From: Erysipelotrichaceae bacterium MTC7
GTDB taxonomy: Bacteria; Bacillota_I; Bacilli_A; Erysipelotrichales; Erysipelotrichaceae
Length of the DNA: 32,000 bases
Assembly (NCBI GenBank): GCA_001695645.1
Contig: LVZN01000013.1
Span: 12,336-44,335 of the forward strand
Reading direction: 5' to 3'
Shown: piece after piece, positions 878-31,850 of the stretch
How the letters are laid out: each line of letters begins with the position of its first letter
Numbering within the stretch: the stretch's first letter is position 1
The notes under the pieces: generated by a model
Told to the model about the DNA's origin: nothing
Databases searched by the model: none
The model's input: only the letters and a program-made list of their open reading frames with translations
Position numbers and translations under genes: made by a program

Positions 878-2026
878 TTATTTCCCTCCATATTCATATA
901 CAAAAGCACGTGTTTTTTCATCCGTTACTCGTAAATCTTCGTAACTTGGATTTGCAATAAATTCCATCGTTTCGTATGCTTTTGCAATACACTCTTCAAT
1001 TTGTAAGAATGTAATCTTTTCATTTAAAAATAATTCAACCGCAACTTCATCTGCCGCATTTAAAATCGCACCGCTATTTCCACCACGTTTACCCGCTTCA
1101 TAAGCAAGGGCTAAAAGTGGAAAGCGTTCAAAATCCATCGCATCAAAGTGTAACATTCCTACCTTGATTAAATCAAGAGGTTCACTTTGCATAAGTGGTA
1201 GTCGATCAGGATAACTCAATGCATATTGGATAGGAATGCGCATATCTGCGGTTCCTAGTTGCGCTATAACAGAACGATCCACGTATTCAACAAGGGAATG
1301 TACAATACTTTCCTTGTTGATAATGGTATCAATATTCGCAAAGTCAATATCAAACAAGTAATGCGCTTCAATCACTTCAAATCCTTTATTCATCATCGTC
1401 GCGCTATCAATCGTGATGCGTTTTCCCATCGACCAATTGGGGTGACTTAAAGCATCTTTTACACTTACATCAACAAGTTGTTCTCGTGTTTTATCACGAA
1501 AACTTCCACCACTGGCACTAACGATAAGACGTTTCACTTCACTGGTTTTATTTCCTTGTAAGCATTGAAAGATCGCAGAGTGTTCACTATCAATTGGCAA
1601 CATCGTTCCCTTGAATTTTTTTAGTGCAGCTTTGACTAAGGGTCCTCCAGTCACCAAACTTTCTTTATTAGCTAAAGCTAAGACCATCCCTTTTTCGATG
1701 GTTAAAAGACTTGGTTTTAATCCAGCAAATCCAACAAGTGCATTAATTACCATATCTGCTTTTACATCCAACAATCCAAGCAATCCATCATCACCGTGAC
1801 CAAAATGCAAATTTGGATACATCGCTTGTAAAGCAAGTGCATCACTTTCCTTACGTACACTGTAGTATTTACAGGTTGGATAGATGCGAATGATTTTTTT
1901 AAGTTCTTCTATATTGTAACCAGCTGCCATGGCAACGATTTCATACATATTCGGGTGTCCAAGTACTACATCGATACTTTGTGTTCCAATCGAACCTGTT
2001 GCGCCAAGTAATATTATTTTTTTCAT
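878..2026 (-). CDS. dxr: 1-deoxy-D-xylulose-5-phosphate reductoisomerase (MEP pathway)
   Basis: 382-aa track ORF. N-terminal NADPH-binding LGATGSIGTQ, plus LANKESLV and DSEHSAIFQC motifs typical of Dxr. Conserved position after cdsA. Confidence 0.97.
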   Translation of the reverse strand: MKKIILLGATGSIGTQSIDVVLGHPNMYEIVAMAAGYNIEELKKIIRIYPTCKYYSVRKESDALALQAMYPNLHFGHGDDGLLGLLDVKADMVINALVGFAGLKPSLLTIEKGMVLALANKESLVTGGPLVKAALKKFKGTMLPIDSEHSAIFQCLQGNKTSEVKRLIVSASGGSFRDKTREQLVDVSVKDALSHPNWSMGKRITIDSATMMNKGFEVIEAHYLFDIDFANIDTIINKESIVHSLVEYVDRSVIAQLGTADMRIPIQYALSYPDRLPLMQSEPLDLIKVGMLHFDAMDFERFPLLALAYEAGKRGGNSGAILNAADEVAVELFLNEKITFLQIEECIAKAYETMEFIANPSYEDLRVTDEKTRAFVYEYGGK

Positions 2027-4911: not shown

Positions 4912-4940
4912 TTGACATATGTCAATAATAGGCATATACT
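4912..4940 (+). promoter_or_regulatory. sigma-A-type promoter of the DUF134-mrp operon (TTGACA-17 nt-TATACT); the -35 lies inside a 14-bp palindrome
   Basis: TTGACA 4912..4917, 17-nt spacer, TATACT 4935..4940. About 36 nt upstream of the AAGGAG SD and ATG 4977. TTGACATATGTCAA (4912..4925) is its own reverse complement. Confidence 0.7.
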
Positions 4941-4976
4941 TTTTCTTGTACAAATTACAACTAAGGAGAACTATCG

Positions 4977-5312
4977 ATGCCAAGACCAAAAAAGACAAGA
5001 AATATCTGTGAACGTCCACGTTGTACAAGTTTTCGTCCTGACCTTCATCACGAGAAAGAAACACTCTTACCACTTGATGAATACGAAGTGATTCGTTTAA
5101 TCGACTATGAAGGCTTAAACCAAGAACAATGCGCGGCGCAAATGGGAATTTCAAGAACTTTAGTACAAGCGATGTATGCACGTGCACGTAAGCAAATTGC
5201 CATATGTTTGGTTGAGTCAACCGCCTTACGAATAAGTGATCATCGTGAAGTTTGCCCAAAAGTGCATAAAAAACGTCCTTGTTGTAAAAAAGGAGGAACT
5301 CAACATGAGTAA
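4977..5312 (+). CDS. DUF134/UPF0251-family small putative DNA-binding protein (sigma-70 region-4-like HTH) with N- and C-terminal Cys clusters
   Basis: 111 aa. MPRPKKTRNICERPRCTSFRP...LDEYEVIRLIDYEGLNQEQCAAQMGISRTLVQAMYARARKQIA matches my recollection of the UPF0251 pattern (MPRPxKxRxVC..P....F.P, DExExIRLxDxEGxxQEExA..M.VSRxTV). Cys at 11, 16, 93, 102 and 103. AAGGAG SD 8 nt upstream. Confidence 0.85.
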   Translation: MPRPKKTRNICERPRCTSFRPDLHHEKETLLPLDEYEVIRLIDYEGLNQEQCAAQMGISRTLVQAMYARARKQIAICLVESTALRISDHREVCPKVHKKRPCCKKGGTQHE

Positions 5313-6576
5313 TTGTAATAACGACTGTGGTTCATGTAGCGAAAACTGTAACGATAGAACCACACCGCAAAGTTTTTTAGAAGAACCAAATAAGAACGCT
5401 AACATCAAGAAAGTCATCGGAATCGTAAGTGGTAAAGGTGGCGTTGGAAAATCACTTGTCACTTCTCTACTTGCCTCAAGCATGCAAAGAAAAGGTTATC
5501 CAAGTGCGATTCTTGATGGAGATATCACAGGACCTTCCATTCCAAAAGCGTTTGGAATTAAAGATAAAGCCTATGGAAATGACAACGGTATGTTCCCTGC
5601 GACTTCTAGTACAGGTGTAAAACTCTTTTCAACCAACATGTTGCTTCAAAACGAAAGTGATCCAGTCGTTTGGCGTGGACCAGTTATTGCTGGAATGATC
5701 AAGCAATTCTGGCAAGAAGTACAATGGGGTGATGTAGATTACATGTTTGTTGATATGCCTCCAGGAACTGGAGATGTACCATTGACTGTCTTCCAATCTC
5801 TTCCTGTTGATGGAATTATCATTGTGACAAGTCCACAAGAACTGGTATCAATGATTGTTGAAAAAGCAGTCAACATGGCAAACATGATGCAAATCCCAGT
5901 TTTGGGTATAGTTGAAAATATGAGTTACTTCATTTGTGATTCTTGTAATAAAGAACACCATATTTTCGGTGATAGTCACCTTGAAGAAATTGCTGAAAAA
6001 TTTGGCATTGAAACCATTGCACGTTTACCGATGGACCCTAGCTTTGCAAAACTTGTTGACCAAGGAAGAATTGAAGATTTAAACGTGACCCAAATTCAAC
6101 CAATCACAACCATGTTGGAAACCGTTGAAAGCCTTCATAACAATAAAGAAGAAGCAACAGATCAACCAGCAACAAATATAACTGCAATTGTAGCAATACC
6201 ATACGATAAAGGACAAGTGTTCCAACATTTTGGTAAAACCAAAGAGTTCAAGATTTACACTGTCAAAAATAGTCAAATCACGAATCAAAGAATCATTTCT
6301 GCTGGTACAGCGGGACACCACGAACTTGTAAATGTATTACAAGCGCAAAATGTCGACACTTTACTTTGTGGTGGTATGGGTAATGGTGCCAAGGATGCAA
6401 ACGAAGCTGCAGGTATTACTGTATACACAGGATTTACAGGCAGTTGCGAACAAGCAATCGCCAAATACATAAGTGGAACTGCGACATTATCAAGTGATGC
6501 AACATGCGATCACCATGATCACGAACATCATCACGACCATGAGCACCAATGTAGTGGAAACTGCGCAAATCACTAA
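5305..6576 (+). CDS. fusion protein: Mrp/NBP35/ApbC-type P-loop ATPase + NifX/NafY/NifB-C-type (dinitrogenase FeMo-cofactor-binding family) domain + His-rich tail
   Basis: Track ORF 5236..6576 trimmed to ATG 5305 (AGGAGG SD 8 nt upstream; ATGAGTAA overlap with the upstream stop). N-terminal CNNDCGSCSENC. Deviant Walker A SGKGGVGKS (nt 5431..5454). DMPPGTGD. CxxC (ICDSCNKEHHIFG, nt ~5935). C-terminal domain VAIPYDKGQVFQHFGKTKEFKIYTV...LLCGGMGNGAKDANEAAGITVYTG (nt ~6181..6495). Tail CDHHDHEHHHDHEHQCSGNC (nt 6505..6573). Confidence 0.88.
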   Translation: MSNCNNDCGSCSENCNDRTTPQSFLEEPNKNANIKKVIGIVSGKGGVGKSLVTSLLASSMQRKGYPSAILDGDITGPSIPKAFGIKDKAYGNDNGMFPATSSTGVKLFSTNMLLQNESDPVVWRGPVIAGMIKQFWQEVQWGDVDYMFVDMPPGTGDVPLTVFQSLPVDGIIIVTSPQELVSMIVEKAVNMANMMQIPVLGIVENMSYFICDSCNKEHHIFGDSHLEEIAEKFGIETIARLPMDPSFAKLVDQGRIEDLNVTQIQPITTMLETVESLHNNKEEATDQPATNITAIVAIPYDKGQVFQHFGKTKEFKIYTVKNSQITNQRIISAGTAGHHELVNVLQAQNVDTLLCGGMGNGAKDANEAAGITVYTGFTGSCEQAIAKYISGTATLSSDATCDHHDHEHHHDHEHQCSGNCANH

Positions 6577-6586
6577 AACCAAAAAC

Positions 6587-6620
6587 AAAGAGAACTCAGC
6601 ATTTGAGTTCTCTTTTTGTG
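6587..6620. terminator. bidirectional rho-independent terminator between the convergent mrp-fusion gene and the adhesin gene
   Basis: 12-bp stem AAAGAGAACTCA / TGAGTTCTCTTT with a 5-nt loop. T-run follows on the plus strand (TTTTTG), and a T-rich run follows on the minus strand (TTTGTTTTTGGTTTT). Confidence 0.8.
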
Positions 6621-6647: not shown

Positions 6648-9600
6648 CTATTTTTTGTTTTTTCTAAATTTGTAAGTTCCTAATACAACACCTGCTGCTA
6701 GCAACAATAATGCTGCATATGCCATAACGTTTGTTGTATCACCTGTAGCGATTGAAGGTAATCCTAAAACAGTTTCTTCTTTCTTAGGTTCTTCTTTTGG
6801 TTTGTCTATTGAAGGTGATTGTGTACGAACATAAATTTCAATTACATTCTTTTCGCCATCAACGTCTAGTTTTGCTATTTCACCGTAAGGTGTAACAAAA
6901 CTTTGATTGTTTTCTAGTTTAACTGTATCTAAGAAATCTTTATAGTGTACGTGCCCAAATGCATCTGTAACGTAAAGTCCACTATATGCGTTTTCTGCAA
7001 TAACCTCTTTATTTGCTTCGTGCATTACACGAACAGTTGCATTTGTTTTTATACGAGCTACTTCAATAACAATTACGTTATCAGCATCTTCAACGCTTAA
7101 TGTAATCGTTGGACGTGTTCCCAGTACTTCGTACCCTTCTGGAAGAACTCCGTCAACAAATTGGTTGTAGTCCGATGGAGTAAATTCGTCATTCACGAAA
7201 AGATCAAAGAAATCTTTTGTTCCCAATTCTTTTTGTCCACCATCAGTAACATCAACAACCTTTACAGTAGCTGCAGTTGTCATTCGCTTGATATTAATTA
7301 TGATATCATTACCTGTTTCATTAAGTGTTATTGAATCACGAGGGTCAATTTCTTTATAACCATATGGAACTGCACTATCTACAAAATCATTGTATTGATC
7401 TGGTCCAAATTCATCAGTTGCTTTTAAGTTTTCATAGATTCGCGATGCCACAAATACTGGAGAATCAGTCGTAACATCATAAACAGTCACTGTCGCAAAT
7501 GTACTCTTTTTAGCAATATAAACAATAATTGTGTTCGCTTCCTCATTTTCAGACAAAGTAATAGATGAAGATGGATTTACCCCAACAACTTCATACCCTA
7601 ATGGTGTGTTTGCAGTAACAAAACTACCATAATCACTTTCACCAAACGTATCTGTAGCTTTTAATTCTGTAAATGCTTTGACTGCTGATCCGTCCGGAAT
7701 ATCAGTTGGATTTTGTTGGTCCTCAGTTTTTACCACAATTACTTTTGCAGTCGTATCCATTTTGGTGATAGAGAATCTAAACACATTCTTACTCGAGTCA
7801 GCTTGTAGTTCCCTTTCACCATCCCATCCATTAATCTTGTATCCAGGATATGCTTTAAGTAAATCTTCAATAACTGTTGAAGCATCAGTCAATGGATAGA
7901 ATTCTACAGCTGCTTGTAACTCTGTAATTTTTGCAGAGTCTAAAATTTTTCCATTATCAATATCGTCTAAGTGCATTTGAATTGTTACTGATGTTTTTGC
8001 CTTTGTCATGTATAGTTTAATGTGGTTATTTTCTGCACCACCTGGCACTAGGGTTGCATCTGTAACACCCGTAGTTACCAATACGTAATTTGGTTCTCTA
8101 GCTGCAATAGCATTTGCCTCAGCCAAGATTGTATTTGCAGCAATCACATCATTTACATGACCACTAATTTCAGTTGTTGTACCTACAACATCTCCACTAT
8201 CTATACTATCTCTATAAACAGTAATTTTATACTTTGTTGGAGCATTTGCTACAACGTGAATGACATTCGTATCAGCATTTTTTGTAAGGTTTATTGAAGT
8301 AAGCGTAGAGTTATCAATAACATGATTTGCATAGATGCCAGTTAGGAATGCTTCTAGTTCATTCACATAACTGTTCGCATCAAGTGCAGTTCCAACTTTA
8401 GCTTCTCCAGGTATGGTACCGATAGTCGCTCCATTTATTGCATTTTCGTGTAATACGATTTTATATCCAACTTTTTTTACATAATGAATACTTGGAGAAT
8501 TGTTGAAACTAGTTGTAGATTCAGATTTACCATTCAACGTGTAAGTAATACTAGCGTTTTTGTTTGAAACATATGTATCTTTCTCAAAAGTTGCTTTACT
8601 TTCATTAAATCTTACATTGAATGAGAATTCTTTAGTTGAACTATTTGCATCTCCAACTGTAATGTTGGCAGTTTTATTTCTTACATCAAGAGCGACACCA
8701 GCTGTCCCACTGTCAGAAACAATATCAAACTCATCAGTTACAACATCTTTAATTGACACATTCGTTGCCGTTGGAATCGTTGATAACATTTTATCAATAA
8801 TTGCTGTTATATCTTCAGAAATATCTTGAGGATTTGAGGTATATGCATAATCTGGCTTTGATGCCAAAGACTTAATTAGTGTTTCTGCCGCGGATCCCGA
8901 TTCTAAGCCATAACCTAAAGTAAATACTGTAGATAAAGATTTTAACTTATCACCAGCATCTTTTGTAGGTTTAATGTGATCACCAGAATATCGAATAGCA
9001 TATTTTTTTCCATCAATTACACAATCATGAGAAATCCATGGATCCCCTAAATGACGATTTGGCTCACCATCTCCTAAGATAAATGCGTAGTTATCCGCGT
9101 TTGTTTTACCTTTAAACCATTCATTAGCTTTAAGTACAGCGTAGTGCATATTTGTATTACCATCTGCATCACCAAATTGCGAATCTTCATCTTTTCCAAA
9201 ACTATATGCTTTGCTTGTAACATCTCCAGCAAATGTGATTAATTGAATAGTTACAGTTCTCGCCGGCTTAATATCTTTTAAAGCATTGGCTAATTTTTTC
9301 ACCGCATTTTTCGCATTTTTAAACTTGTTACCATCCATTGATCCTGAGCGGTCCACTATCAAAGCTACATTCAATGGTTTTGGTTTTTGTTGAATATCAC
9401 CACCTTTTACTTTAAAGGTAATTTTATATTCACCATTGTCTAGTTTTTCAAGTGATTTTTCCCACTCAATCCCATCAATTGTCGTCTCATTTGTATCAGT
9501 TGACGAAATTTTACTTGTGGCAACATCACCATCAGTTAGAGCAGTTGGTTTAAAATCTTTTGCCATTACTGTCATGTTTGAAACAGTAGTAAAAACTACA

Positions 9601-9659
9601 GCAAAAGCAATAAAAACAATGCTTAACGTACGTAAGGTTTTTCTTAACTTTTTATTCAT
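6648..9659 (-). CDS. large secreted, cell-surface adhesin-like protein: signal peptide + VWA (MIDAS) domain + Ig-like region + seven ~80-aa MucBP-like repeats + C-terminal wall-sorting-type signal
   Basis: 1003 aa. N-terminal KK..R + hydrophobic core + VMA|KD. MIDAS DRSGSMDG ... GNTN ... GDGEP. Repeats start at about aa 397, 476, 556, 637, 721, 796 and 872. C-terminus LGLPSIATGD-TTNVMAYAALLLLAAGVVLGTY-KFRKNKK. GGAGGA SD. Confidence 0.85.
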   Translation of the reverse strand: MNKKLRKTLRTLSIVFIAFAVVFTTVSNMTVMAKDFKPTALTDGDVATSKISSTDTNETTIDGIEWEKSLEKLDNGEYKITFKVKGGDIQQKPKPLNVALIVDRSGSMDGNKFKNAKNAVKKLANALKDIKPARTVTIQLITFAGDVTSKAYSFGKDEDSQFGDADGNTNMHYAVLKANEWFKGKTNADNYAFILGDGEPNRHLGDPWISHDCVIDGKKYAIRYSGDHIKPTKDAGDKLKSLSTVFTLGYGLESGSAAETLIKSLASKPDYAYTSNPQDISEDITAIIDKMLSTIPTATNVSIKDVVTDEFDIVSDSGTAGVALDVRNKTANITVGDANSSTKEFSFNVRFNESKATFEKDTYVSNKNASITYTLNGKSESTTSFNNSPSIHYVKKVGYKIVLHENAINGATIGTIPGEAKVGTALDANSYVNELEAFLTGIYANHVIDNSTLTSINLTKNADTNVIHVVANAPTKYKITVYRDSIDSGDVVGTTTEISGHVNDVIAANTILAEANAIAAREPNYVLVTTGVTDATLVPGGAENNHIKLYMTKAKTSVTIQMHLDDIDNGKILDSAKITELQAAVEFYPLTDASTVIEDLLKAYPGYKINGWDGERELQADSSKNVFRFSITKMDTTAKVIVVKTEDQQNPTDIPDGSAVKAFTELKATDTFGESDYGSFVTANTPLGYEVVGVNPSSSITLSENEEANTIIVYIAKKSTFATVTVYDVTTDSPVFVASRIYENLKATDEFGPDQYNDFVDSAVPYGYKEIDPRDSITLNETGNDIIINIKRMTTAATVKVVDVTDGGQKELGTKDFFDLFVNDEFTPSDYNQFVDGVLPEGYEVLGTRPTITLSVEDADNVIVIEVARIKTNATVRVMHEANKEVIAENAYSGLYVTDAFGHVHYKDFLDTVKLENNQSFVTPYGEIAKLDVDGEKNVIEIYVRTQSPSIDKPKEEPKKEETVLGLPSIATGDTTNVMAYAALLLLAAGVVLGTYKFRKNKK
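6822..8471 (-). repeat. seven tandem, diverged ~78-84-codon repeats inside the adhesin gene
   Basis: Recurring pattern at protein level: [TA]ATV.V.D....-(L/F).ATD.FG...Y..FV....P.GYE..G.....ITL.......I.I. Examples are ELKATDTFGESDYGSFVTANTPLGYEVVG, NLKATDEFGPDQYNDFVDSAVPYGYKEID and DLFVNDEFTPSDYNQFVDGVLPEGYEVLG. Confidence 0.7.
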
Positions 9660-16406: not shown

Positions 16407-17138
16407 TTACAATTCGCGCAAACTTTCGTGATCAATAATAATATTCGCTCCTTCTTGAATGAGAACATTACAACCGCTTACTTGTTTTTCACTGTATGAA
16501 AATGGAAATACATAGACTTCTTTATTTAATTCGATTGCTTCATTTACCGTCAATAGCGTACCACTTCGTTTACTTGCTTCAATGACAACTACCTTTTCAC
16601 CGAGTGCTGCAATCAAGCGATTTCGTAAAGGAAAATGAAAAGAAAACGGTCGTGATCCGTTGGGGTATTCACTTATGAGTAAATGTTCTTTTTCAATTTC
16701 TTTATAAAGGAAGTGATTACACGCTGGATAATGTACATCAAGTCCACACCCCACAATCGCAATCGTACTACGTGTTGCCAAGGACAATTGATGAATGTAC
16801 CCATCAACTCCTTTTGCCAGTCCACTTACAGTTACGTAATCTTTACTTACATGTCGCAATAACGATTCACAGTTGTAGCGACCTTGACGACTCATTGCAC
16901 GTGAACCAACAATGGATAATTTGCGTTTTTCTAATAGCTTCAAGTCTCCTTTATAGTAAAGTACATACGGTGGTTGTTTTAACAATAAAAACTCTGGTGG
17001 GTATGCATCATCTAAAATAGTTATATAGGGATCTGGATAATCAATGTCACGATAGGCTTCATTATGTAAGATTGCTTTTTTAATTGCATGAACATCACCG
17101 TCGTATTTTACACTGTAATACAATAATCGTTTTCTCAT
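16407..17138 (-). CDS. dprA: DNA-processing protein A (DprA/Smf), compact 243-aa form
   Basis: Rossmann-fold core motifs SIVGSRAMS, GLAKGVDGYIH, GCGLDVHYP, RNRLIAALG and SGTLLTV. Conserved smf-topA adjacency. Confidence 0.88.
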   Translation of the reverse strand: MRKRLLYYSVKYDGDVHAIKKAILHNEAYRDIDYPDPYITILDDAYPPEFLLLKQPPYVLYYKGDLKLLEKRKLSIVGSRAMSRQGRYNCESLLRHVSKDYVTVSGLAKGVDGYIHQLSLATRSTIAIVGCGLDVHYPACNHFLYKEIEKEHLLISEYPNGSRPFSFHFPLRNRLIAALGEKVVVIEASKRSGTLLTVNEAIELNKEVYVFPFSYSEKQVSGCNVLIQEGANIIIDHESLREL

Positions 17139-19449: not shown

Positions 19450-21492
19450 TTATTTCAATTTCAACATCATTGCATTAATTGCAACAATAATGGTACTCAG
19501 TGACATCAAAATGGCACCAAGTGCTGGACTTAATACAATTCCTAATGGTGCCAAGATACCAGCTGCTAGAGGTATAGCTATAATGTTGTAGCCTGCTCCC
19601 CACCATAGGTTTTGGACCATTTTACGCTGCGTGTTTTTGGCAAGTGATAAAAAATGTACAATGTCAGCTGGATCACTTTTTACCAGGACAACATCTGCAG
19701 CATCAATTGCTACATCAGTTCCTGCACCAATGGCAACACCGATGTCTGCGCGAACCAAACTTGGTGCATCGTTTACACCATCACCAACCATCATCACAAC
19801 ATGACCGTTTGCTTTGTATTCTTTTACAATTTGCTCTTTGTTTTCCGGTAACAGTTGTGCATGTACATCATTGATTCCTACTTGTGCTGCAACTACATTG
19901 GCAACTTGTGTGTTATCTCCAGTCAACATCACAGGTGTAATGCCTTCGTCAATAAATTGTGCAACCGTTGTTTTTGCATCTGGCTTAATTTGGTCTCCTT
20001 GCGCAACAAGACCAACATTTACATCATCAACCAATACGAAACTAATGGTATTCCCTTGTTTTGACAAGGATGTTACCAACGCTTCATCAAAATCGATTTG
20101 CTGTTTACTCATATAACTGACACTAACAATCCTAACTGTTTTACCCGCAAGAACACCTTGCAACCCAATTCCTGGTAGGTTTTGGATATCTTGTGCTTTG
20201 GTTAATGACAATTGAAGTTCTTTAGCTTTTTGTAATATCCCAGTAGCAAGTGGATGGCTTGAACCCATTTCTAAACTTGCTGCATACATCAGTACCTGTT
20301 CATCTGTATAGTTTGAATCAAATGATTGAAACGCGTTTACCGCAAAATTCCCTTCAGTTAGGGTTCCAGTTTTATCCATTACAATGATATCCACCTTTTT
20401 CGCAATCTCTAAAGCTTGTCGATTTTTAATCAACAAACCATTTTTCGCACCAAGTGAGGTAGACCTTGCAGTCACTAACGGAATGGCTAACCCGAGTGCA
20501 TGTGGACAAGCTATAATGAACACCGTCACCATGCGTTCTAGTGCAGCACTAACATCATGATCAACCAAAAGCCATACAATAAAAGCACCAATTCCAAATA
20601 CTAGTGCTATGTAAAACAACCAACTAGCCACTTTATCAGATAGGGATTCCACTTTGGATTTATCTTGTTGGGCATGTGCAACTAAATTCATAACCTGTGC
20701 TAGATAGCCCGATTCGCCTGTGCCTGTCACCTTAACAGTTAACGTACCAGATCCATTAATCGAACCACCGATCACAGTATCATTTTCACGTTTTTCTACG
20801 GCTTTTGCCTCTCCCGTTACCATGGATTCATTGACGCTTGTATCTCCACTGACAATGATGCCATCGGTTGGTATATTTTCTCCAGGCTTAACCAACACCA
20901 TGTCACCAACATGTACTTGCGCTAAAGGAATCACACTTGTTTTGCCATCTGAATTTACACGCGTGGCATCACTTGGCAGAAGTTCTGCCATTTTCTTCAA
21001 TGCATCTCCTGCATTTTGAATTGCATTCATTTCAATCCAGTGTCCCAGTAACATAATAATAATTAAAGTTGCTAGTTCCCAGAAAAAATCCATAACGTGT
21101 GCATCACTATGCAAAATGTGATTCATAAAAAACGCATATACACTATAGATATACGCTACAGAAATACCAAGTGAAATTAACGTCATCATCGCTGGCTGTT
21201 TCATTTGCAGTTCCATCTTGGCACCTTTTAAAAATGGCATACCACCATAAAAAAATAACACTGTCGCAAACAGTAAAACCACCCACTGTGAACCAGAAAA
21301 CGATATTTGAAACGGCAATTTTGCCCCCATCAAAGAAGACATTAAAAATATTGGGATGGAAAGAATAATAGAAACGATAAATTTTTGTTTTAAGTTTCCC
21401 ATATGCATTGAGTGGTCCATCATTTGTCCACCATTTTTGTGCATTTCATGTTCCATCGTCTCGTGATGATCATGCATTTCATGTTTGTCCAT
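19450..21492 (-). CDS. copB: copper-translocating P1B-type ATPase, CopB-like (CPH motif, His/Met-rich N-terminus, no HMA domain)
   Basis: Track ORF trimmed to ATG 21492 (AAGGAGG SD inside the track's upstream extension). N-terminus [34 protein letters not shown] motif [34 protein letters not shown]. Confidence 0.93.
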
Positions 21493-21587
21493 AAAATCCT
21501 CCTTTCCCCTCATACGACTATCTATATAGTAGCATTTGCCCTTAGTTAAGCAAGCAATACACTTCTATAACTGGGAATCAGATTGGA

Positions 21588-24015: not shown

Positions 24016-24036
24016 GTTTTTTACTTGACACCTCTA
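24002..24036 (-). terminator. strong rho-independent terminator of the comG operon
   Basis: 12-bp perfect stem AGAGGTGTCAAG / CTTGACACCTCT. The comGG stop sits at the loop edge. TTTTATTG follows. Coordinates are +/-1 because my homopolymer counts here disagree with the track frame by 1 nt. Confidence 0.75.
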
Positions 24037-24446
24037 TCATATTGGTAATTTACAATTCTTTTGCTTTCATAATCGTATGAAAGTGTACTTGATAATTGAT
24101 AGTTTTCACCTTCAATAACAATCTTACATTGCAACTCATCACAGTTGATTTGGACAAGACAGCCCTTATATGTATGATTGCGCTCTGTTTCCTCCTGTTT
24201 CAACATTTGTTTTGCACTTGCAATGGCGTACACTTCCACAAATTCAACTTTACTAACCATTGGACGTTGTGCTTCGAGTTTCAAAGTTAGCATTGTAATA
24301 AAACTTAACGTATAACTCAATAGTAAAAGACCATACAAACTAATAAAGCCGCCTTTAGCAACCGATGATTCTTTCTTTTGGTTTTTGCTTTTTATGTTGG
24401 TAAACAAGATAGATACACTCCTCTCTTTGTTCAAAATACGCATCAT
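24021..24446 (-). CDS. comGG: ComGG-like minor pseudopilin (last gene of comG operon); true start probably internal
   Basis: Track ORF of 141 aa overlapping comGF by 92 nt. Hydrophobic segment KGGFISLYGLLLLSYTLSFITMLTL lacks the Glu5 prepilin signature, as in Bacillus ComGG. A TTG at ~24407 preceded by GAGAGGAG is an alternative start. Assignment is by position and size. Confidence 0.55.
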   Translation of the reverse strand: MMRILNKERSVSILFTNIKSKNQKKESSVAKGGFISLYGLLLLSYTLSFITMLTLKLEAQRPMVSKVEFVEVYAIASAKQMLKQEETERNHTYKGCLVQINCDELQCKIVIEGENYQLSSTLSYDYESKRIVNYQYDRGVK

Positions 24447-24744
24447 CTAAATCTTGTAAAAAAACTTGATAACCTGGTTGCATAACCAAACGATCTTTTT
24501 GTAATTGCAAGTGACTTTCTCGTTCAAAATAAGTCAGCGTAAGTTCACCATTTGCTTGTACATCTTCGCTTAACACATAGATTAAACGCAGTTGAGAAAT
24601 ACTTATATCGTCTTCTCCTTCATAAAGACGTGTATCCATTTTTCGAAAACTCTGAAGATACACCAACACCAAACTAACTAGAATACTTACAATTAATAAA
24701 CTTACGAGTGCTTCCAATAGTGTAAAACCTTGCTTAGCCCTCAT
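24355..24744 (-). CDS. comGF: ComGF-like minor pseudopilin
   Basis: 129 aa. Type IV prepilin leader MRAKQG|FTLLEALVSLLIVSIL. Confidence 0.75.
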   Translation of the reverse strand: MRAKQGFTLLEALVSLLIVSILVSLVLVYLQSFRKMDTRLYEGEDDISISQLRLIYVLSEDVQANGELTLTYFERESHLQLQKDRLVMQPGYQVFLQDLDDAYFEQREECIYLVYQHKKQKPKERIIGC

Positions 24745-24988
24745 GATCTATTATGCTTTCTGCTTCAACTTCTATTTGTTCTGGCAGTTCTTCCTCAACA
24801 ATGATTTCTTCAAAGTGAAATTGTTCATAGATATCGTAAATTTCAATCACTTCATCATAACGATTGATATCTAGGCGTTGATAGCGATATAGACTTTGCG
24901 AACTGATACTTAAAAATAGTACAAGTACAACACAAACCTGTAGAAATACAATACTTTCACTTAAAAGAAAACCCTGTTTACTTCGCAT
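24734..24988 (-). CDS. comGE: ComGE-like minor pseudopilin
   Basis: Track ORF trimmed to MRSKQG|FLLSESIVFLQVCVVLVLFL. Acidic C-terminus. Assigned by operon position. Confidence 0.65.
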   Translation of the reverse strand: MRSKQGFLLSESIVFLQVCVVLVLFLSISSQSLYRYQRLDINRYDEVIEIYDIYEQFHFEEIIVEEELPEQIEVEAESIIDHEG

Positions 24989-25376
24989 ATATATTTCCAC
25001 TCCCTAAATGCACAATGAGTTGTTTCACATCTTGCTTATAACTGCAGGTAATCGTACGTGCTTGATTCACATTTCCGCGTTCATTGAAGAAGATATCATG
25101 ATAGCCACAGTTCACTCCATTTGGTAATTGATATCGTTTGTCTGCAGTAACAATAAAGGTTTCTTCGATTTGTACATGTTGTACCTGTTTACTTAGCAAA
25201 GCTTCTCTTTGTGCTTTCAAAAGCACACTTTTAAGTTTATCGATTTCCATAGGTAGTGATGTCAAAGTTTTTGGACTTTGTGTCAAAATTAGCATACACA
25301 CACTTACCACACAAAGGACCATAAGTAGTTCAACCAATGTAAACCCTTGTTTACTTACTCGCTTGTGCTTCGCCAT
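24978..25376 (-). CDS. comGD: ComGD-like minor pseudopilin
   Basis: Track ORF trimmed to MAKHKRVSKQG|FTLVELLMVLCVVSV, a prepilin leader plus hydrophobic helix. Confidence 0.75.
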   Translation of the reverse strand: MAKHKRVSKQGFTLVELLMVLCVVSVCMLILTQSPKTLTSLPMEIDKLKSVLLKAQREALLSKQVQHVQIEETFIVTADKRYQLPNGVNCGYHDIFFNERGNVNQARTITCSYKQDVKQLIVHLGSGNIYAK

Positions 25377-25653
25377 TAACAATGGTGATTGTCTCTCCAT
25401 CAGGACAACGAGCTTGGCTGGTTTTCAAATATCCTTTACCAATCAGTTGTTGTAAACTGGTTGGCGTCTCTAAAGTCTCAATTTCGTAAAGCAAAATTTG
25501 CGCATTAACCACTTCCACCAAAGCTTCACATCCTTTGTTGTCGATAACTTCTTTCTTTTGTTGAATGTTTGGAATGGTAAGCAAAAATATTAAGGCTATA
25601 ATGGTTAATACAATAATCATTTCCAATATGGTAAATCCTTTTTTTCGATTCAT
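25351..25653 (-). CDS. comGC: ComGC major competence pseudopilin
   Basis: Track ORF trimmed to MNRKKG|FTILEMIIVLTIIALIFLL (G|FTxxE prepilin peptidase site). About 100 aa with two Cys in the globular part. Directly follows comGB. Confidence 0.85.
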   Translation of the reverse strand: MNRKKGFTILEMIIVLTIIALIFLLTIPNIQQKKEVIDNKGCEALVEVVNAQILLYEIETLETPTSLQQLIGKGYLKTSQARCPDGETITIVNGEAQASK

Positions 25654-25655
25654 CG

Positions 25656-26684
25656 TTACATCCTTTCTAATAACTGTAAAGGCAATAACATTACTTGATA
25701 AACACAAATGACCATGACACCAACAAAACTATACGATATGATTTGTAACACCATATTAAATTTCTTAATTTGCATCTCCCACCTTCGTTGTTGTTCATCA
25801 CGATAAGAAATCATCATTTCACGAAACGCACCTGTTGAAGAGCCAATGGTAAAGTGAAGCTTAAATCGTTTCGAAATGCGTGGGTTTTCTTGCAAGACCA
25901 CAAACAAGTCTGCACCTGCATTCAAACCATTGTAAATGGATTGACTCACACTATGAAACAACGGTTGTTTTCGCATATCTTGTAAAAACAAAAAGGCTTG
26001 TCTGGTACTTAGCCCATGTTGATCAAGTTCAATTAGATAATGTGCTAGATAAAACGACATCCATTCTTTCACAAGGGGACTGTGTGTTAGTCCAAAAGCA
26101 CCAACAACACGCATCACTTTGGAACTGATCTGACATAACCCAAACAATAGAAAAAGACATACGATTCCAATAACCATCAAATTGGCCAATTGTTGAATCA
26201 CACCAACCAGTTGAAACATGTAATTTTGTTCGATTTCAAAGTGTTGCACCAACTGTGGAATCACATACCCTGAAAAGATATAAACGGTAAAAAATGAGAC
26301 CAGTAAAATAAAGAAGGGATAGATACTTTTCTTTATCATTTCTTGCTTTAGCTTTTGTTCAAACATGTACATGGAACTTGCACAAGCAATGGCATTTGCA
26401 AGACTTGTCATTTCTAAAAAGAAAGTTACAAACACTTTCATTCGCCCTCTACATGCATCAATGACCAATTGTTCTATGCGTATACCATCATCAAGCATTT
26501 GAAACACTTGAAAACTATCTTTTTCTAACAGTTGCAACGCTTGCTTAAGTGGATATCCTTGTCTTAATAAAGAAGCAAAATACATCCATTCATTTTGCGA
26601 CATTTGCAATACACGAGACTTACGAAATCCAATTTCTTTGTTGAGCCAAGCGAATTTTGTCTTCCATGGTTTGATAGGTTTCAT
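25656..26684 (-). CDS. comGB: ComGB / PilC-GspF-family polytopic platform protein
   Basis: 342 aa from ATG 26684 (the track starts one codon earlier at TTG). GGAAGGAGG SD 8 nt upstream, inside comGA. Duplicated GspF-like architecture with TM segments. Confidence 0.88.
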   Translation of the reverse strand: MKPIKPWKTKFAWLNKEIGFRKSRVLQMSQNEWMYFASLLRQGYPLKQALQLLEKDSFQVFQMLDDGIRIEQLVIDACRGRMKVFVTFFLEMTSLANAIACASSMYMFEQKLKQEMIKKSIYPFFILLVSFFTVYIFSGYVIPQLVQHFEIEQNYMFQLVGVIQQLANLMVIGIVCLFLLFGLCQISSKVMRVVGAFGLTHSPLVKEWMSFYLAHYLIELDQHGLSTRQAFLFLQDMRKQPLFHSVSQSIYNGLNAGADLFVVLQENPRISKRFKLHFTIGSSTGAFREMMISYRDEQQRRWEMQIKKFNMVLQIISYSFVGVMVICVYQVMLLPLQLLERM

Positions 26685-27579
26685 CAAGCAAGCCTCCTTC
26701 CAATAAGATTTGGATGTCTTGTTCTTCCATTAATTCATAAATGCAAATGCGTCGTTCTTCATCTTTTGCTTTGTAAATACGCTGCGAACTTAAGCCAAAC
26801 AACGTTTCTTTTAAATCCAGAACACTTACCCCAAAATCCAACATTCGTTTGATGACATCTTTACAACTTTTTGCATGAATGGTAGATAAAACCAAATGAC
26901 CACTTAATGCTGCAGTGATTAACTGTTTTGCGGTTTTACCATCACGAATTTCACCAATCATAATGACATCAGGATCATGGCGTAAGATTTGTTTAATTCC
27001 TTCTTCATACGTGAAATCAATCTTTTCATTAATCTGCAGCTGTAAATACGTATTGGATTGTATTTCAATAGGATCTTCAAGCGTGATGACATGCTTGTTT
27101 TCTTGTAACGCTAAAGCTTCCAACAACGCATGCAGTGTGGTGGTCTTTCCTGCGCCAGTTGGACCAGATAGTAGTATTAACCCACTGGAGCGTTTTAGCC
27201 AGTCATAAAAAATTGCAACCTGTGCTTCTTCTTTAGTCAAATCCTCAATTGCAAATGCTTGGTGGTTATTCAAAATGCGCAAGACTCCAGTCTGTAGTTG
27301 CATTGTTCGCAAATACGAAAAACGAAACTGTAATTCTTTTTGCTTATAAACATAACTAAAATTTCCACTTTGTGGCAATAAGGAGTTTCCTAAGTCTAAA
27401 TTGGCTGTAAATTTCAAATAATGAAAAAGACTTTCATCAAGAAATTTATGTTCCACTTCCTGAATTCCATAAATACCACGAATTCGAACGTACAAACGTT
27501 TGTTTTGCAGAGTGAAATGGACATCGGTTGCTTGATAAGATTCAATAAGTTCAAGTAATAGTTTTAATTTCTTTTTCAT
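26620..27579 (-). CDS. comGA: ComGA / PilB-GspE-family secretion ATPase
   Basis: Track ORF (GTG start) trimmed to ATG 27579. Walker A GPTGAGKTT. LEDPIE (Asp box). Walker B-like DPDVIMIGEIRD. His box STIHA. Confidence 0.92.
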   Translation of the reverse strand: MKKKLKLLLELIESYQATDVHFTLQNKRLYVRIRGIYGIQEVEHKFLDESLFHYLKFTANLDLGNSLLPQSGNFSYVYKQKELQFRFSYLRTMQLQTGVLRILNNHQAFAIEDLTKEEAQVAIFYDWLKRSSGLILLSGPTGAGKTTTLHALLEALALQENKHVITLEDPIEIQSNTYLQLQINEKIDFTYEEGIKQILRHDPDVIMIGEIRDGKTAKQLITAALSGHLVLSTIHAKSCKDVIKRMLDFGVSVLDLKETLFGLSSQRIYKAKDEERRICIYELMEEQDIQILLEGGLLDETYQTMEDKIRLAQQRNWIS

Positions 27580-27591
27580 GTGCACCTCGTT

Positions 27592-30688: not shown

Positions 30689-30766
30689 GCATGAATCTGC
30701 TTTTTTGCTTACGCTTCCATGTGAAAAATTAATGAAACTTTATAATTATACACAAGCGAAAAAGAA

Positions 30767-30775
30767 TGGTATAAT
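30767..30775 (+). promoter_or_regulatory. extended -10 promoter element (TGgTATAAT) for ispG
   Basis: AATGGTATAATGCGAGTAGGTGATATT-ATG. This makes the track's upstream extension (30705..30791) non-coding. Confidence 0.6.
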
Positions 30776-30791
30776 GCGAGTAGGTGATATT

Positions 30792-31850
30792 ATGAAAACA
30801 AGAAATCAAACAAGACCCATTCAAGTTGGTAATGTAACCATCGGTGGGCAAAATAAAGTTGTAATTCAATCGATGTGTTCGATTAAAACAAGCAAAGTCC
30901 AAGAAGTCGTCGAACAAATCTATCGACTCGAAGAAGTTGGTTGCCAGATCGTTCGTGTCTCGGTGATGGATGACGATGATGCAAAAGCCATCAAAGAAAT
31001 AAAGAAATACATCCATATTCCACTTGTTGCTGACATTCATTTCAATTACAAGCAAGCAATTGCTGCCATTGAAAATGGTGCAGACAAAATTCGTTTGAAT
31101 CCGGGAAACATCGGTTCTAAAGAAAATGTTCAAAAAGTGGTAAACCTTTGTAAGGAAAAGCATATTCCAATTCGCATCGGCATCAACTCAGGTTCTTTGG
31201 AAAAGGACATTCATGAAAAATATGGAAAACCAACCGCAGAAGGAATGATTGAAAGTGCCCAGCGACACGTGCAAATTTTGGAAGATATGGATTTCTATGA
31301 CATCTGTTTATCGTTCAAAAGTAGTGATGTACAACTATGTATTGATGTGTACCGACTTGCAGCCAAAACCTTTGACTATCCATTACACTTAGGAGTCACA
31401 GAAGCTGGAAACTTTGCCATTTCTTCCATCAAAAGTAGTGTTGCACTAGGCACCTTATTGGAAGCAGGTATTGGGGATACCATGCGTGTATCCGTCAATG
31501 GTGAACCAGAGGAAGAAATTTTTATTTGTAAGCAAATACTAAAAAGTTTACATTTGATTGATAAAGTTGCAAACCTCATTGCTTGCCCTACTTGCGGACG
31601 CACCCAGTTTGATATTCGCCCTATCGTAAACGAAATGGAAGCATACATGCGCACTGTCAACAAAGACATTACCGTTGCCATTATGGGCTGTGCAGTCAAT
31701 GGTCCAGGTGAAGCTAAACACGCAGACATTGCCATAGCTGGTGGAAAAGATGATGGCTTACTCATCAAGAAAGGTGAAATCATCAAACGGGTTAAACAAG
31801 AAGATATGGTAAGTGTCTTAAAAGCTGAAATAGATGCATTTGAAGGTTGA
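30792..31850 (+). CDS. ispG: 4-hydroxy-3-methylbut-2-en-1-yl diphosphate synthase (MEP pathway, [4Fe-4S])
   Basis: Track ORF trimmed to ATG 30792 (MKTRNQTRPIQVGNVTIGGQNKVVIQSM...). RVSV, IRLNPGN and the C-terminal cluster ligands CPTCGR...GCAVNGPGE. Confidence 0.96.
   Translation: MKTRNQTRPIQVGNVTIGGQNKVVIQSMCSIKTSKVQEVVEQIYRLEEVGCQIVRVSVMDDDDAKAIKEIKKYIHIPLVADIHFNYKQAIAAIENGADKIRLNPGNIGSKENVQKVVNLCKEKHIPIRIGINSGSLEKDIHEKYGKPTAEGMIESAQRHVQILEDMDFYDICLSFKSSDVQLCIDVYRLAAKTFDYPLHLGVTEAGNFAISSIKSSVALGTLLEAGIGDTMRVSVNGEPEEEIFICKQILKSLHLIDKVANLIACPTCGRTQFDIRPIVNEMEAYMRTVNKDITVAIMGCAVNGPGEAKHADIAIAGGKDDGLLIKKGEIIKRVKQEDMVSVLKAEIDAFEG

Follow-up and report, generated by a model that had tools for sequence, protein, structure and literature searches.

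Within a 32,000-nt stretch of the Erysipelotrichaceae bacterium MTC7 genome (contig LVZN01000013.1, positions 12,336 to 44,335; referred to below as the window), two genes form an operon that encodes a 111-residue protein of the DUF134/UPF0251 family and a 423-residue fusion protein, here called the carrier, in which a Mrp/NBP35 P-loop ATPase domain is joined by a linker to a NifX-like domain with a Cys/His tail (Table 1). Comparative analysis indicated that the carrier belongs to the MrpORP family of iron–sulfur (Fe–S) cluster carriers and that the DUF134 protein is probably an autorepressor with an identifiable operator. The promoter, on the plus strand, consists of TTGACA (4912–4917), a 17-nt spacer and TATACT (4935–4940). 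This consensus match is weak on its own, with six promoter-like sites in the region against 6.0 expected by chance; the promoter region is kept in Breznakia. The two genes overlap by 8 nt at their stop and start codons (ATGAGTAA), a tight spacing also present in Breznakia, where the DUF134 open reading frame (ORF) ends at 6008 and homology to the carrier begins at 6001. The ATG start of the 423-residue ORF is consistent with the N-termini of its homologues. Downstream, the terminator hairpin reached −15.6 kcal/mol (z = −4.2; 0 of 200 shuffled sequences folded as well), and its T-run on the plus strand is broken (TTTTTGTGT). Promoter, Shine–Dalgarno sequence, coupling and bidirectional terminator were all found where an initial annotation, made from the letters alone, had placed them. 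An Rfam search for a riboswitch or leader RNA at a permissive threshold returned only a chance-level Thr_leader (E = 0.39) over the His-codon-rich tail.

Table 1 Features of the DUF134–carrier operon (positions are those of the window)
Feature	Position	Strand	Details
Candidate DUF134 operator, half-sites TTTTTGACAT and ATGTCAATAA	4909–4928		20-bp inverted repeat; overlaps −35 box
Sigma-70-type promoter	4912–4940	+	11/12 consensus matches
Shine–Dalgarno sequence AAGGAG of DUF134 gene	4963–4968	+	8 nt ahead of ATG 4977
DUF134/UPF0251 gene, 111 aa	4977–5312	+	PF02001, E = 1e-18
Translational coupling junction	5290–5312	+	AAGGAGG 5290–5296; carrier ATG 5305; DUF134 stop TAA 5310–5312
MrpORP-type carrier gene, 423 aa	5305–6576	+	Mrp/NBP35 domain :: linker :: NifX-like domain :: Cys/His tail
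N-terminal CX3CX2CX3C (C4, C8, C11, C15)	5314–5349	+	93–98% conserved in the top 120 homologues
Mrp/NBP35 P-loop ATPase domain	5401–6072	+	PF10609, E = 7.7e-88, residues 33–256
NifX-like (Nitro_FeMo-Co / IPR003731) domain	6208–6471	+	PF02579, E = 5.5e-18, residues 302–389
Cys/His tail CDHHDHEHHHDHEHQCSGNCANH	6505–6573	+	residues 401–423; conserved Cys/His
Bidirectional intrinsic terminator hairpin	6587–6615	both	between operon and convergent surface-protein gene

Together with a large surface-protein gene, the operon splits the usually contiguous tsf–pyrH junction. In Breznakia blatticola the pair recurs at 85% and 81% identity and in the same synteny, the order being rpsB, tsf, large surface-protein gene, pair, pyrH, frr, uppS, cdsA and dxr; the fusion is thus no assembly artefact, a possibility that the initial annotation had raised. 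The top 120 homologues of the carrier, which come from Aminipila, Anaerocolumna, Lachnospiraceae, Synergistaceae and others and are at best 55% identical, are all fused alike. A recent horizontal insertion was considered as well; G+C content is ordinary (0.36–0.40) and Breznakia has the same arrangement, so that there was no evidence for a recent event.

Profile searches upheld both domain assignments made earlier for the fusion: PF10609 scored 294.5 bits (cutoff 27.1) and PF02579 65.5 bits (cutoff 26.3). The best NCBIfam model was NF041136, "iron-sulfur cluster carrier protein MrpORP", which matched over model positions 2–364 of 365 with 437.8 bits (E = 3.5e-131). MrpORP (Orp9/DVU2109 in Desulfovibrio vulgaris, Dde_3202 in Desulfovibrio alaskensis) was characterised by Pardoux et al. 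in 2019: a [4Fe–4S] cluster bridges two subunits at the CXXC motif and can pass from there to apo-aconitase and Orp3/Orp4, while a [3Fe–4S] cluster, the role of which was left open, is bound by the NifX-like "Di-Nase" domain (PMC6345978). From the 99 Mrp::NifX-like fusions found in that study, several independent origins were concluded (PMC6345978). The label of an uncharacterised module, under which the locus had first been described, is fair for DUF134 and overstated for the fusion. The carrier aligned end to end with Dde_3202 (32% identity, E = 2e-67), shared 52% identity with P0119 of Anoxynatronum, which bears the name MrpORP at NCBI, and has the two-domain architecture of the family, a Mrp/NBP35 P-loop NTPase (GKGGVGKS, 43–50) followed by a Di-Nase domain (IPR003731). 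The N-terminal Cys cluster, the deviant Walker A motif (SGKGGVGKS, residues 42–50, nt 5428–5454), the CXXC motif (C211-D-S-C214, nt 5935–5946), the linker, the NifX-like domain and the terminal CDH of MrpORP are all present. The carrier differs in a tail that runs 20 residues past CDH with extra conserved Cys and His, in its N-terminal spacing (CX3CX2CX3C), and in the regulator beside it, which is DUF134 at a sigma-70 promoter, whereas Desulfovibrio uses OrpR with sigma-54. Judged by its sequence, the carrier is a slightly divergent member of the known, partly characterised MrpORP family.

One further comparison with Desulfovibrio led elsewhere. Orp7 (DVU2107), encoded by the first gene of the orp7-8-9 operon, was considered as a possible DUF134 protein, which would have made the window a plain orp7–orp9 remnant; scanned on the contig of DVU2109, itself rebuilt from the paper's supplement, Orp7 gave no DUF134 match. 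The protein (L083:97-507; L numbers denote genome loci) has no Pfam match on record and turned out to be divergent but NifX-like, its PF02579 match (E = 3.5e-4) falling short of the gathering score, so that the orp7-8-9 operon would encode three NifX-like domains.

The ATPase domain also matched the ApbC model (E = 1.1e-57) and the PDB entries 2ph1 and 3kb1 (about 1e-68), while Foldseek placed its predicted fold with AF2382, Cfd1 and ApbC (2ph1, 3kb1, 6g2g, 8zkc; 1e-23 to 1e-17). By sequence and predicted fold alike, the archaeal ApbC-like proteins, Cfd1 and ApbC are its nearest relatives, ATPase-type HypB being farther away. The P-loop domain, the deviant Walker A motif and the bridging CXXC are shared with the ApbC/Mrp/Nbp35/Cfd1 proteins, which lack the NifX-like domain and the Cys/His tail. 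Bacterial ApbC carries an N-terminal MIP18/DUF59-type domain. The N-terminal four-Cys site of the carrier is analogous in position to that of Nbp35 and MrpORP (PMC6345978). For the NifX-like domain, in which the motifs QHFGKTKEFKIY and LLCGGMGNGA can be read, the PDB entries 1t3v and 1o13 (about 1e-10) and also 2yx6 were matched, and Foldseek led to PH0822. A NifX, NafY or NifB protein proper, of the nitrogenase cofactor pathway, was not indicated: the TIGR01290 nifB model gave 25 bits on the carrier (cutoff 344), and no nif genes were seen at any examined locus. The IPR003731 domain of IssA binds Fe–S species and its C-terminal tail binds thioferrate (PMC5524996). IssA resembles the carrier in having the same globular domain followed by a functionally important, probably disordered C-terminal tail, but the IssA tail is long, cationic and Gly/aromatic-rich, whereas the carrier has an acidic tail enriched in His, Asp, Glu and Cys. 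Nitrogenase genes do not accompany the carrier. The AlphaFold2 (AF2) model of the carrier shows two folded domains (predicted local distance difference test, pLDDT, 85), with low confidence at residues 1–20 and 400–423 (tail pLDDT below 50); for cofactor-dependent folding such low model confidence at the termini would be expected.

Conservation among the top 120 homologues outlined the putative cofactor sites. C211 and C214 are 99–100% conserved. In the NifX-like domain, H308 (HFG) is found in 100% and H338 (GH) and C355 (CGG) in 90% each. The tail, of which residues 401–420 read CDHHDHEHHHDHEHQCSGNC, keeps C401 in 100%, H403/H404/H406 in 79–94% (H404 94%, H406 86%), C416 in 80%, C420 in 74% and H423 in 75%. 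The homologues start with C-x3-C-x2-C-x3-C and end with C-D-H-H-x-H ... C-x(2-3)-C-x-(C)H; the Desulfovibrio proteins end at CDH, and Thermodesulfobium has a short His-rich extension. Moreover, the same tail occurs on DUF134::NifX fusions (P0173, L019) and on free-standing NifX-like proteins. The tail had initially been likened to the His-rich tails of Ni/Zn metallochaperones. A reading as a private poly-His tag did not stand, because its Cys and His are conserved clade-wide and the motif recurs on regulators and free NifX-like proteins. Going by these alignments, the N-terminal Cys motif and the tail are conserved across a large clostridial clade and are not peculiar to one gene; instead of a tag added for metal capture, the tail is a Cys/His site that one NifX-like subtype has conserved. 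H308, H338, C355 and C401 together with the tail form the candidate ligand set of this subtype.

The DUF134/UPF0251 assignment of the first gene held as well, PF02001 scoring 68.1 bits against a gathering cutoff of 27. In agreement with the source of the DNA, its product was 100% identical to a protein of Erysipelotrichaceae bacterium MTC7. The protein also matched Sigma70_r4_2 (E = 1.5e-8) and stayed below the cutoff of the NCBIfam equivalog PRK04217, itself named "hypothetical protein" (53.6 vs 115). In public data the family comprises about 2,800 clusters at 50% identity (2,809 when 1.84 billion representative proteins were searched exhaustively). A basic Cys-bearing N-terminal arm (MPRPKKTRNIC) is followed by a sigma-70 region-4-like helix-turn-helix (HTH) and a Cys-rich C-terminus (C93, C102, C103). 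Seven Cys are present (C11, C16, C52, C77, C93, C102, C103) where five had been counted before, C52 and C77 having been overlooked; C52 is among the best-conserved Cys in close relatives (C11 92%, C52 90%, C93 65%, C103 71%). DUF134 proteins usually have Cys in the N-terminal arm (C7, C11) and a C-terminal Cys cluster after GGxYxxC, neither of which is universal. The AF2 model (pLDDT 80) contains helices 33–44, 49–56 and 60–80 in a three-helix sigma-70 region-4-like core, with low confidence for residues 91–111. No solved DUF134 structure was retrieved by sequence search, and Foldseek returned nothing beyond region-4 cores of about 48 residues, the best being region 4 of SigR.

A 20-bp inverted repeat, the arms of which are 90% complementary by inverted-repeat search, lies over the −35 box of the operon, with the core GACATATGTC at 4914–4923. 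With at most one mismatch, this core occurred 28 times in 7.6 kb of DNA upstream of DUF134 genes and 17 times, about chance level, in the remaining 790 kb of locus DNA. An N4-ATAT-N4 palindrome was found in 20 of 24 dereplicated DUF134 upstream regions; in the other four it lay upstream of the first gene of the operon. Loci fetched later contained two perfect copies (L095) or one copy each (L090, L091 and L093). Upstream of genes for NifX-like proteins with the tail that have no neighbouring DUF134 gene, it was absent in all 35 cases. The copies sit over the −35 box, just after the −10 box, or at both places, positions that are typical of repressor sites. Furthermore, the sequence of the palindrome varies with that of the protein: all four operons with the variant GTGCATATGCAC (L002, L007, L088 and L093) encode a DUF134 recognition helix SRGT[FL]QR[IL]LY, whereas operons with GACATATGTC encode [AS]R[TS]T[VIA][QT]. 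By this rule, the helix ARTTVQ would go with GACATATGTC and SRGTFQR with GTGCATATGC. L093 was examined after this rule had been set and obeyed it. As the palindrome variant covaries with the recognition helix, there is good comparative evidence for binding of DUF134 to the palindrome, and the protein is probably an autorepressor with an identifiable operator. Within the window, the core with at most one mismatch revealed no further regulon site beyond that at the promoter (1.15 expected by chance). We did not find the helix–operator covariation, the predicted operator or the link between DUF134 and NifX-like domains described in the searchable literature.

The initial annotation had stated that DUF134 genes recur beside NifX-like and Mrp-like genes. 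This proved to be real: among genome loci fetched with query-derived peptide patterns, DUF134 was part of the same operon at 10 of the 12 Mrp(ORP)-like loci examined. It directly precedes the MrpORP-like gene in the window, Breznakia (L001), a Bacillota metagenome-assembled genome (MAG; L002), Aminipila terrae (L087), Anaerocolumna sedimenticola (L088), a Synergistaceae MAG (L093) and L095, precedes separate Mrp and NifX genes in L007 and a Mrp-only gene in L091, and lies near the head of a full ORP-like cluster in Anoxynatronum (L089). In the Synergistaceae locus L093 the pair adjoins Rrf2–NifS–NifU_N genes. The order in L089 is DUF5320, DUF134, NifX-like, two CbiA+Fer4 genes and MrpORP. The DUF5320 gene of Anoxynatronum sibiricum (L089:3137-3487) thus stands ahead of DUF134, and two operator copies upstream of it place it in the same transcription unit.

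In addition to standing side by side, DUF134 and NifX-like domains are fused. PF02579 was detected on 28 of the 149 closest DUF134 representative clusters, no other domain recurring as a partner, and DUF134::NifX proteins with the same CDHH...C tail were encoded at about 25 of 80 genome loci. Repeated fusion of a DNA-binding domain to one particular type of ligand-binding domain is the classic mark of one-component regulators; accordingly, the NifX-like domain would be the sensory partner of DUF134. In a Christensenellaceae MAG (L038:5908-7121), a 148-residue ORF that has the N-terminal Cys motif as well as the beginning of the Mrp P-loop domain directly precedes a DUF134::NifX gene; this ORF may be a decayed Mrp gene or a domain-shuffling intermediate among the three modules. 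At the species level, about 20 genomes (Lachnospiraceae, Treponema porcinum and others) have DUF134::NifX as the first gene of a packed same-strand cluster (e.g., Acetivibrio ethanolgignens L072:5596-11779; L045–L071; T. porcinum L064), in which it is followed by genes for a Crp-family regulator, thioredoxin, rhodanese, CoA-disulfide-reductase (CoADR)::rhodanese, rhodanese and two rubredoxin/rubrerythrin fusions. Its gene content suggests an operon against oxidative or persulfide stress that has two regulators. NifX-like proteins that stand alone and bear the Cys/His tail are encoded at L026:2007-11787 and 12 similar Oscillospiraceae/Clostridia loci, in a run of genes for MarR, two ABC exporters, NifX, a small RelA_SpoT alarmone synthetase, a response regulator, a histidine kinase and FtsH. 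At L024, L025 and L031, free NifX-like genes follow MatE and CoADR::rhodanese genes. Neither a DUF134 gene nor the palindrome was found at these two kinds of free-NifX loci.

Taking these observations together, we consider it somewhat probable that the locus is an autoregulated Fe–S carrier operon in which a DUF134 repressor reads the cofactor state of the carrier. By analogy with the Desulfovibrio proteins, a carrier dimer would hold a labile [4Fe–4S] cluster on C211/C214 and pass it to apo-proteins, with the N-terminal four-Cys motif and the NifX-like domain plus Cys/His tail as further putative cluster or metal sites. DUF134, presumably as a dimer, would bind the palindrome formed by TTTTTGACAT and ATGTCAATAA; since this covers the −35 box of its own promoter, binding would repress transcription. 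The NifX-like domain would serve as the sensory partner, as fusions elsewhere suggest. The split form present here would let the repressor sense the redox or cofactor-loading state of the carrier, whether through contact or through a cluster that is passed on to the Cys of DUF134 itself. The comparisons show family membership, conserved ligand residues, the conserved gene pairing and fusions, and a conserved operator that covaries with the recognition helix; we infer repression rather than activation by DUF134, a physical interaction between it and the NifX-like domain, and the cofactor, signal and client proteins of the module. The context points to Fe–S clusters, redox state or sulfur chemistry as the signal, given that IPR003731 domains bind Fe–S species, that isc-type genes adjoin the pair in L093, that DUF134::NifX genes head stress-type clusters and that OrpR is an Fe–S redox sensor. 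The three-function unit proposed at first (Cys-rich regulator, ATPase scaffold, cofactor-binding domain with metal-capturing tail) survives in sharper form, with DUF134 as probable autorepressor and the NifX-like domain as its probable sensory partner.

The resulting feedback loop would work like IscR–isc or SufR–suf, systems compared here by working principle and not by membership. There, as proposed for DUF134, a small HTH repressor encoded by the first gene of an Fe–S operon binds a palindrome at its own promoter, with its activity set by cluster occupancy. The folds differ, being sigma region-4-like in DUF134 and Rrf2 or DeoR/ArsR-type in IscR and SufR; moreover, cofactor binding by DUF134 itself is putative, and sensing may rest with a separate or fused NifX-like domain. 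OrpR (DVU2106) is likewise a dedicated regulator of a MrpORP-containing operon and senses redox through an Fe–S cluster (PMC8359166), but as a PAS–AAA+–HTH enhancer-binding sigma-54 activator it is non-homologous to DUF134.

Several points weigh against this interpretation. The carrier missed the curated MrpORP cutoff of 450 narrowly, by about 12 bits. Where the Desulfovibrio proteins have CxHFGHCE and TPPPHxPG, the carrier reads QHFGKTKE and AGTAGHHE; in the absence of the former motifs, the [3Fe–4S] result from Desulfovibrio may not be transferable to its NifX-like domain. The terminal CDH is kept at 401–403. Given the several origins of the fusion stated by Pardoux et al., the two motifs may mark the Desulfovibrio subtype only. 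The Cys of DUF134 are not universal: the subgroup with the GTGC operator lacks C52, and the proteins of L087 and L060 lack the C-terminal cluster, which leaves an Fe–S cluster on DUF134 itself uncertain. Moreover, the loci had been sampled with a bias towards this tail type. Both partners also occur apart: the MrpORP-like genes of L004 and L094 have neither DUF134 nor the palindrome, and orphan DUF134 genes exist in L090 and L092. No Fe–S client was identifiable near the operon. Finally, the searchable literature, which leaves out most subscription journals, names DUF134 in only two papers, both times incidentally, and assigns it no function.

The same evidence allows other readings, of which a redox, oxidative-stress or reactive-sulfur response module is the foremost, although we regard it as rather unlikely. 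DUF134 and the NifX-like domain would then use an oxidisable cluster or Cys/His site as a sensor of O2, peroxide or sulfane sulfur, and the Mrp carrier, instead of being kept at a fixed level, would be induced to mend or re-supply damaged Fe–S clusters. The stress-type clusters headed by DUF134::NifX, with their thioredoxin, rhodaneses and rubrerythrins, speak for it, as do the free NifX genes with the tail that adjoin CoADR::rhodanese genes, one of which lies near the pair in L095. In the same vein, the orp cluster of D. alaskensis is flanked by genes for desulfoferrodoxin, rubredoxin, a flavodiiron protein and cytochrome bd, and the Desulfovibrio regulator OrpR is an Fe–S redox sensor (PMC8359166). 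However, no stress genes stand beside the pair in the window, Breznakia, Aminipila or Anaerocolumna, the link to stress genes is one of adjacency only, and the palindrome was seen at the DUF134 promoter alone and not before internal genes of the clusters. This explanation refines the autoregulated-carrier reading more than it contradicts it, the point of difference being the signal.

It appears highly improbable that the pair is a metallochaperone for Ni, Zn or Co plus its metal-sensing regulator, with the His-rich tail capturing the metal and the ATPase inserting it in the manner of ATPase-type HypB or CooC. The tail is indeed rich in His, Asp and Glu, a His-rich metal-binding segment is plausible, and HypB of Thermococcus kodakarensis, like CooC an ATPase of the MinD/Mrp class, is a recognisable relative of the ATPase domain (3vx3, 28% identity, E = 4e-29; Foldseek 1e-14). 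Yet ApbC, Cfd1 and MrpORP match this domain far better, its almost invariant CXXC pair and the Fe–S context favour Fe–S clusters over Ni, and the tail contains conserved Cys and is shared with transcription regulators and free NifX-like proteins. HypA genes are lacking, and no hydrogenase, carbon monoxide dehydrogenase (CODH) or urease gene adjoins any examined locus; for nitrogenase, hydrogenase, CODH and urease, the absence of a client gene from the 32-kb window, noted from the start, was confirmed.

We give very little credence to the view that the pair is left over from the ORP complex in reduced form and acts in cell division or positioning, the role proposed for Desulfovibrio. Homology to MrpORP and the existence of Firmicutes ORP-like clusters that include DUF134 (L089) would fit, and MrpORP localises to the cell pole with a proposed division role (PMC6345978), the Desulfovibrio orpR mutant showing altered morphology. 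Against this, no Orp3-, Orp4- or Orp8-like gene is present in the window, which differs in this respect from Desulfovibrio and from Anoxynatronum L089; the division role itself is putative, and the two-gene form is a stable unit that recurs in many lineages. That the palindrome is a promoter feature or the site of another regulator, DUF134 having an unrelated function, is scarcely believable: its first half-site does contain the −35 consensus TTGACA, so that promoter strength may account for part of its conservation, but further copies are found directly downstream of the −10 box, where this argument fails, the second half-site mirrors the first as its conserved reverse complement, and the palindrome tracks DUF134 through unrelated gene contexts, is missing from all 35 control promoters and covaries with the recognition helix.

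Other genes were also noticed in the window. Beside the operon in the tsf–pyrH junction, the minus strand encodes a 1003-residue surface protein (6648–9659) that combines a VWA domain and numerous repeats with a membrane anchor at its C-terminus; its length differs among near-identical assemblies (1003 residues in the window, 1168 in L081, 1087 in Breznakia). A 687-residue P-type (E1–E2) ATPase is encoded between signal peptidase and rplS (19450–21513, minus strand). No HMA domain was detected in it; it may be a metal pump, and no link to the operon was found. The isoprenoid genes ispG/gcpE (30705–31850, plus strand) and dxr (878–2026, minus strand) are present along with uppS and cdsA. IspG, a [4Fe–4S] enzyme, was the only recognised Fe–S enzyme noticed in the window; it is encoded 24 kb from the operon, and its proximity is probably coincidental. 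A competence-type pilus operon (24021–27585, minus strand) encodes a T2SSE ATPase, a T2SSF platform protein and three prepilins with the N-terminal methylation motif; like this operon, dprA (16407–17138) is ordinary.

Tentatively, the comparisons suggest that DUF134 and NifX-like domains with the CDHH tail may constitute a widespread, unrecognised class of regulators in anaerobes. Such regulators, fused or split, would sense Fe–S or reactive-sulfur species, bind N4-ATAT-N4 sites and control both Fe–S trafficking (MrpORP, ORP clusters) and operons for oxidative or persulfide defence (rubrerythrin, thioredoxin, rhodanese, CoADR); the window would represent the split form, in which the carrier ATPase bears the sensor and loading is coupled to transcription. 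For the DUF134 family, the comparisons yield a predicted operator, a predicted sensory partner domain, two candidate kinds of regulon and a specificity rule that relates recognition helix to half-site. Delivery of Fe–S clusters is poorly understood in strict anaerobes, and if the regulator reads the state of an Fe–S carrier, Fe–S feedback control would have a third solution beside IscR and SufR, one without structural relation to either.

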